NCBI RefSeq assembly: GCF_003018255.1
Contig: NZ_CP027440.1
Source: Escherichia coli
Lineage (GTDB): Bacteria > Pseudomonadota > Gammaproteobacteria > Enterobacterales > Enterobacteriaceae
Reading direction: 5' to 3' (one strand)
DNA length: 64,000 bases
Positions 19,637 to 62,343 of the stretch are shown piece after piece (position 1 is the first letter of the stretch; each line of letters opens with the position of its first letter). The position numbers and the translations under genes are program-made. Below the pieces are notes generated by a model, which saw only the letters and a list, made by a program, of their open reading frames with translations, was not told the origin of the DNA and did not search any database.

Positions 19637-19668
19637 TTAACCATTCCCATACAATTAGTTAACCAAAA

Positions 19669-19698
19669 AGGGGGGATTTTATCTCCCCTTTAATTTTT
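19669..19698 (+). terminator. probable terminator after clpX (GGGGA/TCCCC stem, U-rich tail)
   Basis: Hairpin and T-rich run read from sequence. Confidence 0.6.
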
Positions 19699-19713
19699 CC
19701 TCTATTCTCGGCG

Positions 19714-19740
19714 TTGAATGTGGGGGAAACATCCCCATAT
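19714..19740 (+). promoter_or_regulatory. sigma-32 heat-shock promoter of lon (TTGAAT-N13-CCCCATAT)
   Basis: Motifs read about 85-110 nt upstream of lon ATG. Confidence 0.7.
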
Positions 19741-19823
19741 ACTGACGTACATGTTAATAGATGGCGTGAAGCACAGTCGTGTCATCTGATTACCTGGCGG
19801 AAATTAAACTAAGAGAGAGCTCT

Positions 19824-26547: not shown

Positions 26548-28248
26548 TCATTGCGACGGCGCGGGAAGCCAGGCTTCGGTAAATTCAAACCAGCCTCGCG
26601 GTGTCAGTCGCACACCGTTCACGCCGGGAGGGGCGCTAATGCGATAGTGATAGTTGAACAGCGGCGTCAGCGTCGCATCTGCCATTAACTGGCTAAAAAC
26701 CGCTTTCAGGGCATTAAATCGGTTTTCCTCATCAGGCATTACTTGCACCGCGTCCAGTGTCGATTGCAAATGTGCATATGCTGGAGCGTCGAAAACATGT
26801 GGCCATAGTGGATCGCAACGCAGCCATTGCTCCAGGGTATATTCCGGTGCTTCGCCAATTAATCTGTCGCCCATCATGAGGTCTGCGTGTGCCAGTAGGG
26901 TCGTGTCGTCCCAGTTTTTTGCGTTATGAAAAATAATTGTGAGTTCACAGCCTTCCGCTGCCAGTGTCGCCTGTAGACGTTCTGCCATGGTATGAAGTTC
27001 TATCGGTAGGTGATAAACCAGCGTCAAGGTTTTCGGTAGTTTGACCTCATCCGGTACTTGCCATTGCGGAATAGTCCAGCCTGGCAGTAATGCATGACTG
27101 GCGGTGATCAGGTTTTCTCCGACTTCTAACGTTTGTAATAAACCGGATTGATGAATAATGGAAATCACTTTTCGCGCCTGCCAGAGGGACAGTCGGGGAC
27201 TTTTGCGCAACGTTAAATAGCAAAAACCTAAACTGATGCCACTACTGACCTGGCTGACCCGTTGCAGCTCCTCCGGTTTGCCGATGGTGATTTGCACGGG
27301 ATGCCGACAACTGGTTCCCAAATCTTTTTCGAAAAGCGGCGGAGTTATCCAGTACTCAACCGCTTTAAGCAGCGGATGACGTAAATGGTAATAATCATGG
27401 CTTTCCAGGCGCACCAGCTCCGCTGTGAATTGTGTTAAGCGAAAAGGACCCGTGCCGATCAGTGGGAATTGCGGATGCGCCAGATGGCTGCAATAGCTCG
27501 CCAGTCGGTGCGCAAGCCAGTAATCGGGGCGATGTAAAAAGAAGGTCAGACACTGCGGATGGGTGACTTCAATACGCTTCACGCTAATAAATAATTGATC
27601 CAGTGCTGGCAGTTGTAACAGCAGCAATAATCGCTGGTGTAAGTGTGAGGCTTTTACTGCATCGCCGTTATGCCAGTGTAGGGTTGAACGAAGATAAAAG
27701 TCCCAGCGTAACCCGTCAGTAGAGGTTTCCCAGTGATGTGCTAAATCGCCAATCGGGCGCTGAGTATTATTATCGAAGCGGGTCAGGCCGGAAAATATCT
27801 GCCCGGCCAGATGCTGCTCGGCACGGCCGGGCAAAAAGCCCGGTTGTAGCGGTTCGAGCGGGCGATAGTAGGGAATACGCAACGTGGGCGTATCGTTTTG
27901 CCATTGTCCGCCCATAAACGGCTGTAACAGAGTGCGCAGCTCACCTGGGGCCAGTTGCGCCAGCTCCAGCACATCTTGCTGCTTTCCGGTTTCCAGCGCC
28001 TGTTCCATCATCGCATTGCGTAGCGATTCTGGCGTGACCAGAAAGCGTAGTTGCCCGCGTTTTCCGCGTCCTGACTGCGCCTGCCACTCCAGCCATCCCG
28101 CCTCCTGTGCCTGGCGTAACAGCGTACGAACATGGCGTTCGCTGCAAAAACAGCGTTCGGCCAGTTCGCTGACGGTGACGGTTTGCGGCTTTCCGGCGGA
28201 AGGTTGCCACAGACGTTGATACTGGTTAAGACGGTTGAGCAGTCGCAT
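26548..28248 (-). CDS. ybaE: uncharacterized solute-binding-protein-like protein YbaE
   Basis: Track ORF 26548..28263 trimmed to MRLLNRLNQYQRLW (566 aa, from recalled protein length); function not known to me. Confidence 0.85.
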   Translation of the reverse strand: MRLLNRLNQYQRLWQPSAGKPQTVTVSELAERCFCSERHVRTLLRQAQEAGWLEWQAQSGRGKRGQLRFLVTPESLRNAMMEQALETGKQQDVLELAQLAPGELRTLLQPFMGGQWQNDTPTLRIPYYRPLEPLQPGFLPGRAEQHLAGQIFSGLTRFDNNTQRPIGDLAHHWETSTDGLRWDFYLRSTLHWHNGDAVKASHLHQRLLLLLQLPALDQLFISVKRIEVTHPQCLTFFLHRPDYWLAHRLASYCSHLAHPQFPLIGTGPFRLTQFTAELVRLESHDYYHLRHPLLKAVEYWITPPLFEKDLGTSCRHPVQITIGKPEELQRVSQVSSGISLGFCYLTLRKSPRLSLWQARKVISIIHQSGLLQTLEVGENLITASHALLPGWTIPQWQVPDEVKLPKTLTLVYHLPIELHTMAERLQATLAAEGCELTIIFHNAKNWDDTTLLAHADLMMGDRLIGEAPEYTLEQWLRCDPLWPHVFDAPAYAHLQSTLDAVQVMPDEENRFNALKAVFSQLMADATLTPLFNYHYRISAPPGVNGVRLTPRGWFEFTEAWLPAPSQ

Positions 28249-28347
28249 ATAAACCCGGAACAATATTATTTAACTATTCACTATTACTTCCGTATATATC
28301 AGGTGATACTCAATCACCATTAACCGTGTCACAGAGTGGAGAAAGAA

Positions 28348-29166
28348 ATGGCTCGTCTGGCAGCATTTGATATGGATGGCACTTTATTGATGCCTGACCA
28401 TCATTTAGGTGAGAAAACCCTCTCTACTTTGGCGCGACTGCGTGAACGCGACATTACCCTCACTTTTGCCACTGGGCGTCATGCGCTGGAGATGCAGCAT
28501 ATTCTCGGGGCGCTATCGCTGGATGCATATTTGATTACCGGCAACGGAACGCGCGTGCATTCTCTGGAAGGTGAACTTTTACATCGTGATGATTTACCTG
28601 CGGATGTCGCGGAGCTGGTGCTGTATCAGCAGTGGGATACCCGAGCCAGCATGCATATCTTCAATGACGACGGTTGGTTTACCGGGAAAGAGATCCCTGC
28701 GTTGTTGCAGGCATTTGTCTATAGTGGTTTTCGTTATCAGATAATCGATGTCAAAAAAATGCCACTCGGCAGCGTCACCAAGATCTGCTTCTGTGGCGAT
28801 CACGACGATCTTACACGCTTGCAGATCCAGCTATACGAAGCATTAGGCGAGCGTGCACATTTGTGTTTTTCCGCCACGGATTGCCTCGAAGTGCTGCCGG
28901 TGGGCTGCAATAAAGGCGCTGCATTGACGGTGCTGACCCAACATTTAGGTTTATCGTTGCGCGATTGCATGGCCTTTGGTGATGCGATGAACGATCGCGA
29001 AATGTTAGGCAACGTCGGTAGCGGATTTATTATGGGCAATGCGATGCCGCAATTGCGCGCGGAGCTCCCGCATTTACCGGTGATTGGACATTGCCGAAAT
29101 CAGGCTGTCTCTCACTATTTGACGCACTGGCTGGACTATCCACATCTACCTTATTCCCCCGAATAA
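28348..29166 (+). CDS. cof: HAD-superfamily HMP-PP phosphatase Cof
   Basis: Track ORF 28336..29166 trimmed to [14 protein letters not shown] (HAD motif I DMDGT). Confidence 0.92.
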
Positions 29167-29318
29167 CGAGATCCCTTCCAGCACCGGGCAATTGCCCGGT
29201 TTTTTTTGCGTTGAATTTGTCATTTTGTGCCGTGGTGTTTAAACCGCACAGAATAAATTGTCGCGATTTCACCTTTAAAATAGAATTAAAAGAGAAAAAA
29301 ATTCTCTGTGGAAGGGCT

Positions 29319-29777
29319 ATGTTAGATAAAATTGACCGTAAGCTGCTGGCCTTACTACAGCAGGATTGTACCCTCTCTTTGCAGGCACTGGCTGAAGCCG
29401 TTAATCTGACAACCACCCCGTGCTGGAAGCGTCTGAAACGGCTGGAGGACGACGGTATTCTTATCGGCAAAGTCGCCCTGCTGGATCCGGAAAAAATAGG
29501 CCTCGGCCTGACCGCCTTTGTGCTGATAAAAACGCAACATCACAGCAGCGAATGGTATTGCCGCTTTGTCACGGTGGTTACCGAAATGCCAGAAGTGCTG
29601 GGGTTCTGGCGCATGGCCGGTGAATACGATTATCTGATGCGCGTCCAGGTTGCCGACATGAAACGCTACGACGAGTTTTATAAGCGTTTGGTAAACAGCG
29701 TGCCGGGGCTGTCGGACGTCACTTCCAGCTTCGCGATGGAACAGATTAAATACACCACTTCTTTACCCATCGAATAA
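29319..29777 (+). CDS. decR: Lrp/AsnC-family transcriptional regulator DecR (YbaO)
   Basis: Track ORF 29091..29777 trimmed to [16 protein letters not shown] (152 aa). Confidence 0.9.
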
Positions 29778-29806
29778 ATATCCAGAATCAGGTCAGGACA
29801 CAACGC

Positions 29807-33353
<3,547 letters not shown>

Positions 33354-33396
33354 ATAGCGCAATATTTCATCGTTGGTGCAAAAATGTAACGCACTG

Positions 33397-33413
33397 TGCA
33401 CTGTCATAGTGCG
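33397..33413. promoter_or_regulatory. candidate NtrC-type site (TGCACT-N5-AGTGCG) upstream of glnK
   Basis: Partial match to TGCACC-N5-GGTGCA read about 55-70 nt upstream of the sigma-54 promoter. Confidence 0.4.
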
Positions 33414-33465
33414 TTTTTGTTTTCAATCTTCTTAACTTCCTGCTCTCCTTCTCGTTTTTCATTTC

Positions 33466-33481
33466 TGGCACACCGCTTGCA
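33466..33481 (+). promoter_or_regulatory. sigma-54 promoter of glnK-amtB (TGGCAC-N5-TTGCA)
   Basis: Exact -24 GG / -12 GC consensus read about 55 nt upstream of glnK ATG. Confidence 0.8.
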
Positions 33482-33533
33482 ATACCTTCTTCGTGTAGCA
33501 GAACCATTACCGAATTCTGACCGGAGGGGATCT

Positions 33534-33872
33534 ATGAAGCTGGTGACCGTGATAATCAAACCATTCAAGCTGGAAGACGTTCGTGAAGCGTTATCTTCCA
33601 TTGGTATTCAGGGCCTGACCGTCACCGAAGTGAAAGGTTTCGGGCGTCAGAAAGGGCATGCCGAGCTGTACCGGGGAGCGGAATACAGCGTCAACTTTCT
33701 GCCAAAAGTAAAAATTGATGTGGCGATTGCTGATGACCAACTCGATGAAGTGATCGATATCGTCAGTAAGGCGGCTTACACCGGAAAAATTGGCGACGGC
33801 AAAATCTTTGTCGCTGAATTGCAACGCGTCATTCGTATTCGTACCGGCGAAGCCGACGAAGCGGCGCTGTAA
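33534..33872 (+). CDS. glnK: nitrogen regulatory protein PII-2
   Basis: Track ORF 33396..33872 trimmed to MKLVTVIIKPFKLEDV (112 aa). Confidence 0.95.
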   Translation: MKLVTVIIKPFKLEDVREALSSIGIQGLTVTEVKGFGRQKGHAELYRGAEYSVNFLPKVKIDVAIADDQLDEVIDIVSKAAYTGKIGDGKIFVAELQRVIRIRTGEADEAAL

Positions 33873-33901
33873 TCTCTGGCACACAGCAACAGGAACGAAA
33901 A

Positions 33902-35188
33902 ATGAAGATAGCGACGATAAAAACTGGGCTTGCTTCACTGGCGATGCTGCCGGGACTGGTAATGGCTGCACCTGCGGTGGCCGATAAAGCCGACAATGCG
34001 TTTATGATGATCTGTACTGCGCTGGTGCTGTTTATGACTATTCCGGGGATTGCCCTGTTTTACGGTGGGTTGATTCGCGGCAAAAACGTGCTGTCGATGC
34101 TGACGCAGGTGACGGTGACGTTTGCACTGGTCTGTATTCTCTGGGTGGTTTACGGTTACTCGCTGGCGTTTGGTGAGGGCAACAACTTCTTCGGCAACAT
34201 TAACTGGCTGATGCTGAAAAACATCGAACTGACGGCGGTGATGGGCAGCATTTATCAGTATATCCACGTAGCGTTTCAGGGATCGTTTGCCTGCATTACC
34301 GTAGGCTTGATAGTTGGGGCGCTGGCGGAACGAATCCGCTTCTCAGCTGTGTTGATTTTCGTGGTGGTATGGCTGACGCTCTCCTACATTCCGATTGCGC
34401 ATATGGTGTGGGGCGGTGGTTTGCTGGCTTCTCACGGTGCGCTGGATTTCGCGGGTGGCACGGTGGTGCACATTAACGCCGCAATCGCCGGTCTGGTGGG
34501 CGCATATCTGATAGGCAAACGCGTGGGCTTCGGTAAAGAGGCGTTTAAACCGCACAACCTGCCGATGGTCTTCACCGGGACTGCCATTCTCTATATCGGT
34601 TGGTTTGGCTTTAACGCCGGGTCAGCGGGCACGGCGAATGAAATCGCGGCACTGGCATTTGTGAATACTGTGGTCGCAACGGCGGCGGCAATTCTTGGCT
34701 GGATCTTCGGTGAATGGGCGCTGCGCGGAAAGCCTTCACTGCTGGGAGCGTGTTCTGGTGCGATTGCCGGTCTGGTCGGCGTGACGCCAGCGTGTGGCTA
34801 CATTGGTGTTGGCGGCGCGTTGATTATCGGCGTGGTAGCTGGTCTGGCGGGCTTGTGGGGCGTTACCATGCTCAAACGCTTGCTGCGGGTGGATGATCCC
34901 TGCGATGTCTTCGGTGTGCACGGCGTTTGTGGCATTGTCGGCTGTATCATGACCGGGATTTTTGCCGCCAGCTCGCTGGGCGGCGTGGGCTTCGCTGACG
35001 GTGTGACGATGGGCCATCAGTTGCTGGTACAGCTGGAAAGCATCGCCATTACGATCGTCTGGTCCGGTGTGGTGGCGTTTATTGGCTACAAACTGGCAGA
35101 TCTGACGGTTGGCCTGCGTGTGCCGGAAGAACAGGAGCGAGAAGGGCTGGATGTCAACAGCCATGGCGAGAATGCATATAACGCGTAA
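33902..35188 (+). CDS. amtB: ammonium transporter
   Basis: Track ORF 428 aa with signal peptide; 29 nt after glnK. Confidence 0.96.
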   Translation: MKIATIKTGLASLAMLPGLVMAAPAVADKADNAFMMICTALVLFMTIPGIALFYGGLIRGKNVLSMLTQVTVTFALVCILWVVYGYSLAFGEGNNFFGNINWLMLKNIELTAVMGSIYQYIHVAFQGSFACITVGLIVGALAERIRFSAVLIFVVVWLTLSYIPIAHMVWGGGLLASHGALDFAGGTVVHINAAIAGLVGAYLIGKRVGFGKEAFKPHNLPMVFTGTAILYIGWFGFNAGSAGTANEIAALAFVNTVVATAAAILGWIFGEWALRGKPSLLGACSGAIAGLVGVTPACGYIGVGGALIIGVVAGLAGLWGVTMLKRLLRVDDPCDVFGVHGVCGIVGCIMTGIFAASSLGGVGFADGVTMGHQLLVQLESIAITIVWSGVVAFIGYKLADLTVGLRVPEEQEREGLDVNSHGENAYNA

Positions 35189-35199
35189 CAAGCACTGCA

Positions 35200-35239
35200 A
35201 AAAAACAGCCGGACGGTTTTCACCTCCGGCTATTTTTTT
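35200..35239. terminator. bidirectional terminator between convergent amtB and tesB
   Basis: AGCCGGA...TCCGGCT hairpin flanked by A6 and T7 runs. Confidence 0.7.
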
Positions 35240-36098
35240 AATTATGATTACGCATTACCCCTTCCTGAACGGTCGAGGCAACCAGCACGCCATCCTGGGT
35301 ATAAAACTCACCGCGCACAAAGCCGCGAGCGCTGGACGCCGAGGTGCTCTCCACGCTATACAGCAGCCATTCATTCAAATTAAACGGGCGATGGAACCAC
35401 ATGGAATGGTCAATGGTGGCAATCTGAATCCCCGGTTCGAGAAAACCGATGCCGTGCGGCTGTAAAGCTACCGGCAGGAAATTAAGATCAGAAGCGTAAC
35501 CGAGCAGATACTGATGAACGCGCAGATCATCCGGCACGTTACCATTTGCGCGGATCCACACCTGACGATGCGGTTCTGCGACGTGCCCTTTCAGTGGGTT
35601 ATGAAACTCCACCGGACGGACTTCAAGCGGACGATCGCAGATGAATTTATCTTTCAGCACTGGCGGCAGCAGGTGCGCCAGCGATTGGGCGATTTGCGTT
35701 TCCGAAGGCAGGCCATCAGGCGCTGGCGCGGACGGCATTGTTTTTTGATGTTCGAAACCCGCTTCTGGTGCCTGGAAAGAGGCAGTCATATAAAAAATCG
35801 GTTTGCCGTTTTGAATAGCAGCAACCCGGCGGGCGCTGAAGCTGTTACCGTCACGCAGCGTTTCGACATCATAAATAATCGGCTTCTTACTATCGCCTGG
35901 GCGAAGAAAGTAGCTGTGAAACGAATGTACCAGCCGCTCTTCAGGGACGGTCTCTTTTGCAGCATACAAGGCCTGACCCACGACCTGGCCGCCAAACACC
36001 TGGCGTAAACCTAAATCTTCACTCTGGCCGCGAAAGAGTCCTTCCTCAATTTTTTCCAGATTTAACAATGTCAGTAAATTTTTTAGCGCCTGACTCAT
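35238..36098 (-). CDS. tesB: acyl-CoA thioesterase II
   Basis: Track ORF 35238..36182 trimmed to [20 protein letters not shown] (286 aa). Confidence 0.93.
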
Positions 36099-50833: not shown

Positions 50834-50892
50834 TAACCAAAGGGGGCGACATTTAGTTGCCCCGAGATTACTAACAAAGTGCGCGTTGTTCA

Positions 50893-50992
50893 TGCCGGAT
50901 GCGGCGTGACCGCCTTATCCGGCCTACGAAACCGCAAGAATTCAATATATTGCAGGAGCGGTGTAGGCCTGATAAGCGTAGCGCATCAGGCA
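50893..50992. repeat. BIME: two REP units in opposite orientation (TGCCGGATGCGGCGTGACCGCCTTATCCGGCCTAC and GTAGGCCTGATAAGCGTAGCGCATCAGGC)
   Basis: Canonical REP sequences read directly between convergent mscK and ybaM. Confidence 0.85.
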
Positions 50993-51044
50993 GTTTTGCG
51001 TTTGCCCACAATCTTAGGGGACATTTAGCGACCCCATTTATTTC

Positions 51045-51206
51045 TCACTTTTCCGCCTCATCATCGCGCGTTAATTTCTTTTCATAATCGCGTTTTACAA
51101 TATCCAGCGCGCGCAGTACGGTGCGGGCTGGGATCTGATTTTCTTCCAGCAGCACAATCAAATCGACGGCCAGTTTGACATCGTCAGGGGCATTTTCCAG
51201 TGACAT
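51045..51206 (-). CDS. ybaM: small protein YbaM (DUF2496), 53 aa
   Basis: Not in the 60-aa-minimum ORF track; hand translation of minus strand gives [53 protein letters not shown]; 13 nt downstream of priC. Confidence 0.8.
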
Positions 51207-51219
51207 ACTCTCTCCATTG

Positions 51220-51747
51220 CTAGCGGGTTAAACGCGCTAACCTGTTTTCGATTTTTTCCAGCGCATGGCGGCAGCGTGCCAGGCGCGCTTCATAGGCTTC
51301 CACTTCACGATGCAGCGTTTGCTGTTCCACGAGATCGGTCACCCGCGCCAGGCGGGCTCGACGTTCAGCAACCATCTCACTTAGCCGCCGCTCAAAATCC
51401 TGATGCTGAATACGTTTACGCTGCCAGCGGGCAATTTTCGGTGGCGCACTGTCCCACTCGCGTAGCGACCAGGCTGTGGCTTCACGCGCTATAGCCTCCA
51501 GTTGCGCCGCCAGATGTTCCGCCAGCCAGGCGACTTGCGGCAGCTGTTGCTGCTCAACCGCATGACGAAGCGCAGCCAGATTATCGCCCGCCTCATCGAG
51601 ACAAGCCTGCAGTGTTGTCGCACGAGTCTGAAAAAGATGCCTGTCAAAACGGGCGCTTAGCGTGGCAAATTGCGCTACCGGGGCACAACGCTGACGCAGC
51701 GTAGCGAGCTGTCCTTCCAGTTTTTCCAGCAGCAGGGCGGTTTTCAC
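51220..51747 (-). CDS. priC: primosomal replication protein N''
   Basis: Track ORF 175 aa. Confidence 0.93.
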
Positions 51748-51816
51748 GATAAGACCTCAATGAAAATGATAATTGTTATGCTAAAGTAGCAACTCTGTAA
51801 GCTGACAACACTCAAT

Positions 51817-58754: not shown

Positions 58755-58885
58755 TCAAGCCGCAGCAGATCTGCTTTCGGGCAGGTCTGCTCATCCTCCT
58801 CAGGCAATACCTCTCACAGCAATTAGTTCTTCTTCTTCACTTTTCCGCTACAATTATCAACAAGTTGAATCGATAAGAGGCGGTA

Positions 58886-62260: not shown

Positions 62261-62292
62261 GTTATCGACCAGACCGGACGACGATGGCATCC

Positions 62293-62329
62293 GTAGGCCG
62301 GATAAGATGCGTCAGCATCGCATCCGGCA
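62293..62329. repeat. REP element (GTAGGCCGGATAAGATGCGTCAGCATCGCATCCGGCA)
   Basis: REP-family palindromic sequence read between convergent gsk and ybaL. Confidence 0.75.
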
Positions 62330-62343
62330 ATGGAATCAATGTT

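Follow-up and report, generated by a model that had tools for sequence, protein, structure and literature searches.

In a 64,000-nucleotide stretch of the Escherichia coli genome (NCBI RefSeq assembly GCF_003018255.1, contig NZ_CP027440.1), which we call the window, a short open reading frame (ORF) lies on the minus strand at 51045-51206, downstream of priC. It has an ATG start and a TGA stop and translates as 53 codons over 162 nt, and the spacer between the priC stop and its ATG (51207..51219, minus strand, CAATGGAGAGAGT) is exactly 13 nt long and carries its Shine-Dalgarno site. A preliminary description of the window had reported a 162-nt minus-strand ORF of 53 aa located 13 nt downstream of priC, and translation and coordinates match that report exactly; it had also taken the ORF for ybaM, a real coding gene, and this identification is borne out by the K-12 counterpart, b0466 ybaM (K-12 490,110-490,271), and by matches to PF10689 and NF008266 above their cut-offs. 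From translation, these two family matches, annotation, the ratio of nonsynonymous to synonymous substitution (dN/dS) and an AlphaFold model, we are practically certain that 51045-51206 (minus strand) is the known, annotated and named gene ybaM/rsmS, for which the name used by NCBI and its Prokaryotic Genome Annotation Pipeline (PGAP) is rsmS, "pleiotropic regulatory protein RsmS". The finding is accurate but already known, as this is a long-annotated E. coli gene. The name ybaM is dated, and since a genetic function of rsmS is on record in the literature (PMC6418279), the gene no longer counts among the uncharacterised y-genes.

The match to Pfam PF10689 (DUF2496) reaches 84.7 bits against a cut-off of 25 (E = 3.5e-24) and covers profile positions 1-43 of 43, and the NCBIfam equivalog NF008266 (RsmS) scores 94 bits against a cut-off of 76. 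The PF10689 family is small: clustering at 50% leaves 181 representatives, and at least 588 of the roughly 100,000 species genomes carry a member, ranging over Enterobacterales, Vibrionales, and Alteromonadales. Within E. coli, the gene is present as a single copy in 5424 of 5426 complete genomes and is labelled rsmS in each of the matches listed. Two of the 5424 segment matches sit on records typed as plasmid; these could be pieces of chromosome, replicons given the wrong type, or integrative plasmids of large size. Compared with K-12, the window copy differs at seven codons, six of them synonymous and one non-synonymous (R28S), and the segment 51045-51219 is 94.9% identical over 175 nt, the whole window being about 98.3% identical. 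The 5424 genomes fall into two rsmS identity bands, at least 95% (3140 genomes) and 90-95% (2284 genomes), with differences that are nearly all synonymous, a pattern that would suggest either that two groups of alleles have long existed or that a patch has recombined locally.

Length by itself does not place this ORF beyond chance, given that 53 random codons lack a stop with a probability of 0.079 per start and that 73 ORFs of 50-59 aa occur in the window. A reading of 51045-51206 as a chance open frame without a functional protein could draw on these figures, and we regard that reading as effectively refuted. What lifts the ORF beyond chance is the Shine-Dalgarno site together with the family matches and conservation at the codon level. 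In the 80 Enterobacterales loci compared, dN/dS has a median of 0.13, codon positions 1, 2, and 3 have variabilities of 0.14, 0.09, and 0.39, and stops interrupt each of the two shifted frames at every locus. The preliminary description had held that a lack of conservation would speak against the gene, and by dN/dS and by the closed shifted frames the ORF is conserved. The start codon is ATG in 79 of the 80 loci, and a GGAG/AGGA-type site is mostly present before it in the 46 loci that have an 11-19-nt spacer. Also inconsistent with a chance frame are the extension of the family, with its invariant residues, to Vibrionales and Alteromonadales, and the complementation of mutants by plasmid-borne rsmS.

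The Shine-Dalgarno site of the window copy is GGAGAG at 51210-51215, with GGAG at -9 to -6, 5 nt ahead of the ATG. Its anti-Shine-Dalgarno duplex energy of -6.4 kcal/mol is the best among the 70 distinct ORFs of 20-59 aa that lie between genes of the window, and ybaM is also the longest of these. The preliminary description had noted that ybaM escapes an ORF track with a 60-aa minimum, as a 53-aa ORF must, and it is indeed missing from the listing at the default threshold. The only ORF which that track shows over 51045-51206 is one of 62 aa with an ATG start on the plus strand (50899-51087), which crosses repetitive extragenic palindromic (REP) repeats, overlaps the 3' end of rsmS, is unannotated in every record seen, and is almost certainly spurious. 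With the threshold at 30 aa, the listing for the window gains 374 ORFs (73 of 50-59 aa and 301 of 30-49 aa), and among these the stop of ybaM alone coincides with that of an annotated gene; across the whole syntenic region of the curated K-12 record it is the sole coding sequence under 60 aa. The check proposed in the preliminary description, ORF calling at a 30-codon minimum with scoring of ribosome-binding sites, recovered ybaM, which has the top Shine-Dalgarno score of the 70 intergenic ORFs. The nine intergenic small ORFs with the next-best Shine-Dalgarno sites have implausible compositions and gave no credible NCBIfam match (best E = 0.065, 13 bits against a cut-off of 137). The further suggestion that other small proteins could be missed in the same way is logically valid, but nothing more emerged among the 374 ORFs of 30-59 aa; this check covered matches to annotated stops and intergenic ORFs, and unannotated micro-proteins and ORFs nested in genes are not excluded by it. 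The case has calibration value, in that a 60-aa filter does hide a real conserved regulator. Since 374 extra ORFs yielded one gene, a lower threshold must be paired with Shine-Dalgarno and conservation tests.

Upstream, priC (primosomal replication protein N'', 51220..51747, minus strand) is identified by Pfam PriC (E = 1.9e-51), by an NCBIfam equivalog match of 334 bits, and by annotation; it starts with GTG at 51747 and stops with TAG at 51220-51222. A same-strand priC lies upstream of rsmS in 78 of the 80 Enterobacterales loci, with a spacer of 11-19 nt in 46 of them, and a consensus scan for promoters and terminators turned up none on the minus strand, either between the two genes or for the operon. 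The 13-nt spacer, the lack of a promoter or terminator between the genes, and the conserved same-strand linkage mean that this context indicates that rsmS is the second gene of a two-gene priC-rsmS operon, co-transcribed with priC. The operon has been demonstrated genetically in Pectobacterium and is reported for E. coli (PMC6418279, PMC5778457). Its promoter presumably lies in the 69-nt divergent priC/ybaN intergenic region (51748..51816, from the gene coordinates); the consensus scan gave no minus-strand sigma-70 match there or within priC. Complementation of an E. coli ybaM mutant reportedly depended on the promoter that lies upstream of priC (Hobbs 2010, cited in PMC6418279). On this arrangement, one transcript would carry priC and rsmS, the GGAG Shine-Dalgarno site within the 13-nt spacer would serve rsmS for its own translation, and ribosomes that end priC could re-initiate at rsmS, so that the two genes may be translationally coupled.

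Downstream, a short hairpin-like element with a GC stem (51017..51035, minus strand, GGGGTCGCTAAATGTCCCC) starts 10 nt past the rsmS stop and may mark the 3' end of the transcript; the scan did not call it an intrinsic terminator, and no T-run follows it. A direct-repeat partner lies at 50845-50863, just past the mscK stop, so the 19-nt element has two copies in the window, against 0.01 expected, one just after each stop codon. We rejected it as a conserved feature, since it is limited to Escherichia (2 of the 80 loci) and not conserved outside that genus. The convergent mscK/rsmS intergenic region (50834-51044) also contains two REP-like palindromes, with arms at 50894-50906/50911-50923 and 50914-50927/50963-50976, and the two copies of the 19-nt element flank them.

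The RsmS product has 53 aa, a mass of 6.1 kDa, an isoelectric point of 4.6, and a grand average of hydropathicity of -0.46, which agrees with the small soluble proteins of about 50-60 aa that make up the RsmS/YbaM family. AlphaFold models it as a two-helix hairpin with helices at residues 8-22 and 27-52 and a predicted local distance difference test (pLDDT) score of 93.7, and the product would accordingly be pictured as an acidic 6-kDa cytoplasmic two-helix hairpin. Among 86 diverse family members, A13, A33, and D40 are invariant, and L12, V14, D15, L16, I17, L20, and E21 are conserved in at least 90%, with a near-invariant motif LAVDLI..LE. Residues 1-45 are conserved between genera and the tail varies widely in length and sequence, giving proteins of 48-64 aa. 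At three loci (L010-L012, from Escherichia albertii and from E. coli SCPM-O-B-8794 and E69), RsmS has 55 aa, two residues being inserted in its acidic C-terminal tail (...DDEAQSEK).

Genetic evidence on the function of RsmS comes from orthologs. The phenotypes of rsmB-null strains of Pectobacterium atrosepticum and P. carotovorum are suppressed by mutations in rsmS (PMC6418279); in Pectobacterium these mutations raise exoenzymes, quorum-sensing signal, and virulence, with hypervirulence in two species, and the mutants are complemented by rsmS alone (PMC6418279). Overexpressing rsmS produces the phenotype seen when it is lost, and its dose therefore matters (PMC6418279). In Serratia, cas expression goes up when rsmS is mutated, with rsmA epistatic and no dependence on rsmB (PMC8450108). 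For E. coli itself, several observations are cited in PMC6418279: a yeast two-hybrid hit between YbaM and CsrA, an envelope-stress competition defect of ybaM, a shorter half-life of ybaM mRNA in a csrA51 mutant, and a halving of priC-ybaM mRNA in a csrD mutant. Neither ybaM nor priC is mentioned in the main text of Esquerre 2016. The Keio ybaM mutant is among the curli (Congo red) hits (PMC5745457), ybaM is listed in the literature among silver-screen hits in E. coli, and an E. coli lineage evolved in vivo in the gut carries YbaM A13V, a change at an invariant residue (PMC11406977).

These observations suggest that RsmS has a role in the Csr/Rsm pathway, which we consider likely, and by extension from its orthologs RsmS would have the same role in E. 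coli. The best explanation overall, in which we have good confidence, is that the operon gene rsmS encodes a dose-sensitive accessory of CsrA/RsmA that probably works by direct binding. As a protein accessory, RsmS would help CsrA (RsmA) to act on the mRNAs that it targets, with no part played by the CsrB/RsmB decoy RNAs and probably through direct contact with CsrA; loss of RsmS would lower effective CsrA activity, and excess RsmS would have the same net effect. Taken on its own, action through direct CsrA binding is a step to which we give slightly less than an even chance. RsmS/YbaM is an understudied small protein, barely studied in E. coli; if this explanation is correct, it feeds into the global CsrA regulon, which controls carbon storage, biofilm, motility, virulence, and CRISPR expression.

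Several points weigh against this explanation. The evidence for direct CsrA binding is one high-throughput yeast two-hybrid result, cited second-hand (PMC6418279); Monson et al. label their own RsmS model speculative (PMC6418279); and Campa et al. (PMC8450108) cite binding as shown in Pectobacterium when in the paper they cite (PMC6418279) it is a proposal. We found neither a solved structure nor an informative fold match for YbaM, and the literature searched yielded no Csr-pathway experiment on E. coli ybaM itself. A linker fusion of the form YbaM - GS30 - CsrA - GS30 - CsrA was folded with AlphaFold, which returned no predicted aligned error (PAE) or contacts; the CsrA-only rows of its alignment were homolog sequences, and the E. 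coli CsrA sequence was checked against 1Y00. Read without PAE or contacts, this model gave a predicted template modelling (pTM) score of 0.40 and a mean pLDDT of 64.7, left the confidence of YbaM unchanged, and showed no confident docking, an outcome that speaks neither for nor against binding. Finally, a CsrA role leaves unexplained both the strict linkage to priC and the linkage to ComFB in other orders that is described below. A different account of the phenotypes of rsmS mutants is that RsmS acts on Csr/Rsm traits indirectly and never touches CsrA, serving as an adaptor for the stability of another regulator or acting within quorum-sensing or guanosine tetraphosphate (ppGpp) circuitry; set beside the epistasis of rsmA and the two-hybrid hit, we judge this unlikely.

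The linkage to priC raises the question of whether YbaM is instead mainly a partner of PriC in replication restart, with its Csr-related phenotypes being secondary. The same-strand arrangement in 78 of the 80 Enterobacterales loci, tight in the 46 with 11-19-nt spacers, fits such a partnership, as do a 14-nt overlap between rsmS and priC in Aliivibrio and locus L007 and the continued proximity of priC in Pseudoalteromonas; however, priC alone complements its own replication phenotype and rsmS alone complements the Rsm phenotype, the homologs in Algibacillus and at locus L093 have no priC within the neighbourhood shown, and another gene lies between priC and rsmS in Erwiniaceae and Pragia. We consider a primary role in replication restart improbable.

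In published work, rsmS is said to be "always immediately downstream of priC"; this is true of Enterobacteriaceae, Morganella, Pectobacterium, and Aliivibrio but is no general rule. At about 24 Erwiniaceae loci, a gene for a conserved 81-aa membrane protein (MGLLSWII...PGRPGG...) lies between priC and rsmS, which gives a spacer of about 290-460 nt; examples are L045 3082-3327 and L058 3747-3992, with about 20 more Pantoea/Erwinia loci among L024-L087. The match of this protein to NCBIfam PRK10457 (E = 1.5e-16) falls short of the cut-off, and Pfam yields no hit for it. The Erwiniaceae gap of about 300 nt had been considered as a possible site of a ComFB gene, which was rejected because the gap holds the 81-aa membrane protein. 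Pragia likewise has an 81-aa ORF between priC and rsmS.

In six independent loci, a ComFB-family gene (PF10719) stands immediately before the DUF2496 gene; these loci belong to Algibacillus agarilyticus, Pseudoalteromonas aurantia, P. xiamenensis, and three metagenomic contigs (pairs at L005 3723-4174, L008 1827-2292, L093 1562-2048, L094 2732-3174, L096 174-643, and L097 2729-3168). The two genes overlap by 1, 4, 4, and 14 nt at four of these junctions and are separated by 14 and 28 nt at the other two, and three of the six loci carry priC one or two genes upstream. Both Pseudoalteromonas genomes have the order helicase-TauE-PriC-(HDAC)-ComFB-DUF2496, contig L008 has PriC-HDAC-ComFB-DUF2496, and Aliivibrio has a helicase-TauE-PriC array with DUF2496 directly after priC. 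The ComFB-linked proteins of Alteromonadales resemble RsmS in belonging to PF10689, in the invariant A13, A33, and D40, and in the LAVDLI motif, and differ from it in that the immediate upstream gene, often overlapping, is of the ComFB family and not priC. In Alteromonadales, the DUF2496 homolog is often translationally coupled to a ComFB-family gene.

Recent work identified ComFB proteins as receptors of c-di-GMP and c-di-AMP, with c-di-GMP bound by those family members that were tested; they are reported to be absent from enterobacteria, and cyanobacterial comFB is often in an operon with hfq (PMC12448109); the main text of that paper mentions none of DUF2496, RsmS, PriC, or CsrA. A full-text literature search for "DUF2496" returned a single unrelated paper, and no mention of the ComFB pairing was found in the literature searched. 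One possible, rather doubtful history would be that the RsmS/DUF2496 family was ancestrally the coupled downstream partner of a ComFB-family cyclic-di-nucleotide receptor and that Enterobacterales and Vibrionales later kept RsmS beside priC while ComFB left. A functional partnership of ComFB and RsmS is speculation; if true, RsmS would be an output arm that joins c-di-GMP sensing to post-transcriptional control of the CsrA type. The ComFB linkage is the only possibly new lead in this analysis and a testable hint at the function of the family.

Elsewhere, the window is collinear with about 439,065-503,218 of E. coli K-12 (dxs to ybaL) at about 98.3% identity. Two intergenic segments have no K-12 alignment: adk-hemH (58755-58809; 53 nt in the window and about 157 nt in K-12) and gsk-ybaL (62267-62343; 75 nt and about 124 nt), both differences probably reflecting the content of repeat elements. 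Strain 20Ec-P-124 (L001, around 35301) lacks about 7.2 kb that K-12 and the window carry (cof, decR, mdlA, mdlB, glnK, and amtB; window 28051-35304), a deletion that leaves a truncated ybaE-like pseudogene against tesB. A strong Rfam match to the small RNA (sRNA) sraA (106.7 bits) lies between clpX and lon at 19657-19752 on the minus strand, is not among the features listed for the same stretch of the K-12 record, and is overlapped by a 27-codon ATG ORF at 19702-19785 (minus strand).

Among known systems, the closest to the window gene is RsmS of Pectobacterium (ECA1172; PMC6418279), which has the same PF10689 domain, the same NCBIfam equivalog, and the same place after priC. The Pectobacterium protein has 56 aa in the loci examined, compared with 53 aa in the window, and the copies at loci L073 and L081 are 62-69% identical to the window RsmS over the matched region; the spacer behind priC is 35-37 nt in Pectobacterium and 13 nt in the window (PMC6418279). 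The rsmB-suppressor, virulence, and antibiotic phenotypes come from Pectobacterium only, whereas those of E. coli are screen-level phenotypes. A second comparison is with the CsrA antagonists FliW of Bacillus and its relatives and CesT of enteropathogenic E. coli, whose complexes have been solved (5DMB and 5Z38); in these systems proteins, not sRNAs, bind and modulate CsrA. Tested for membership in these groups, RsmS showed no sequence or fold homology to FliW or CesT, and it is by analogy that we propose that RsmS may work like FliW and CesT.
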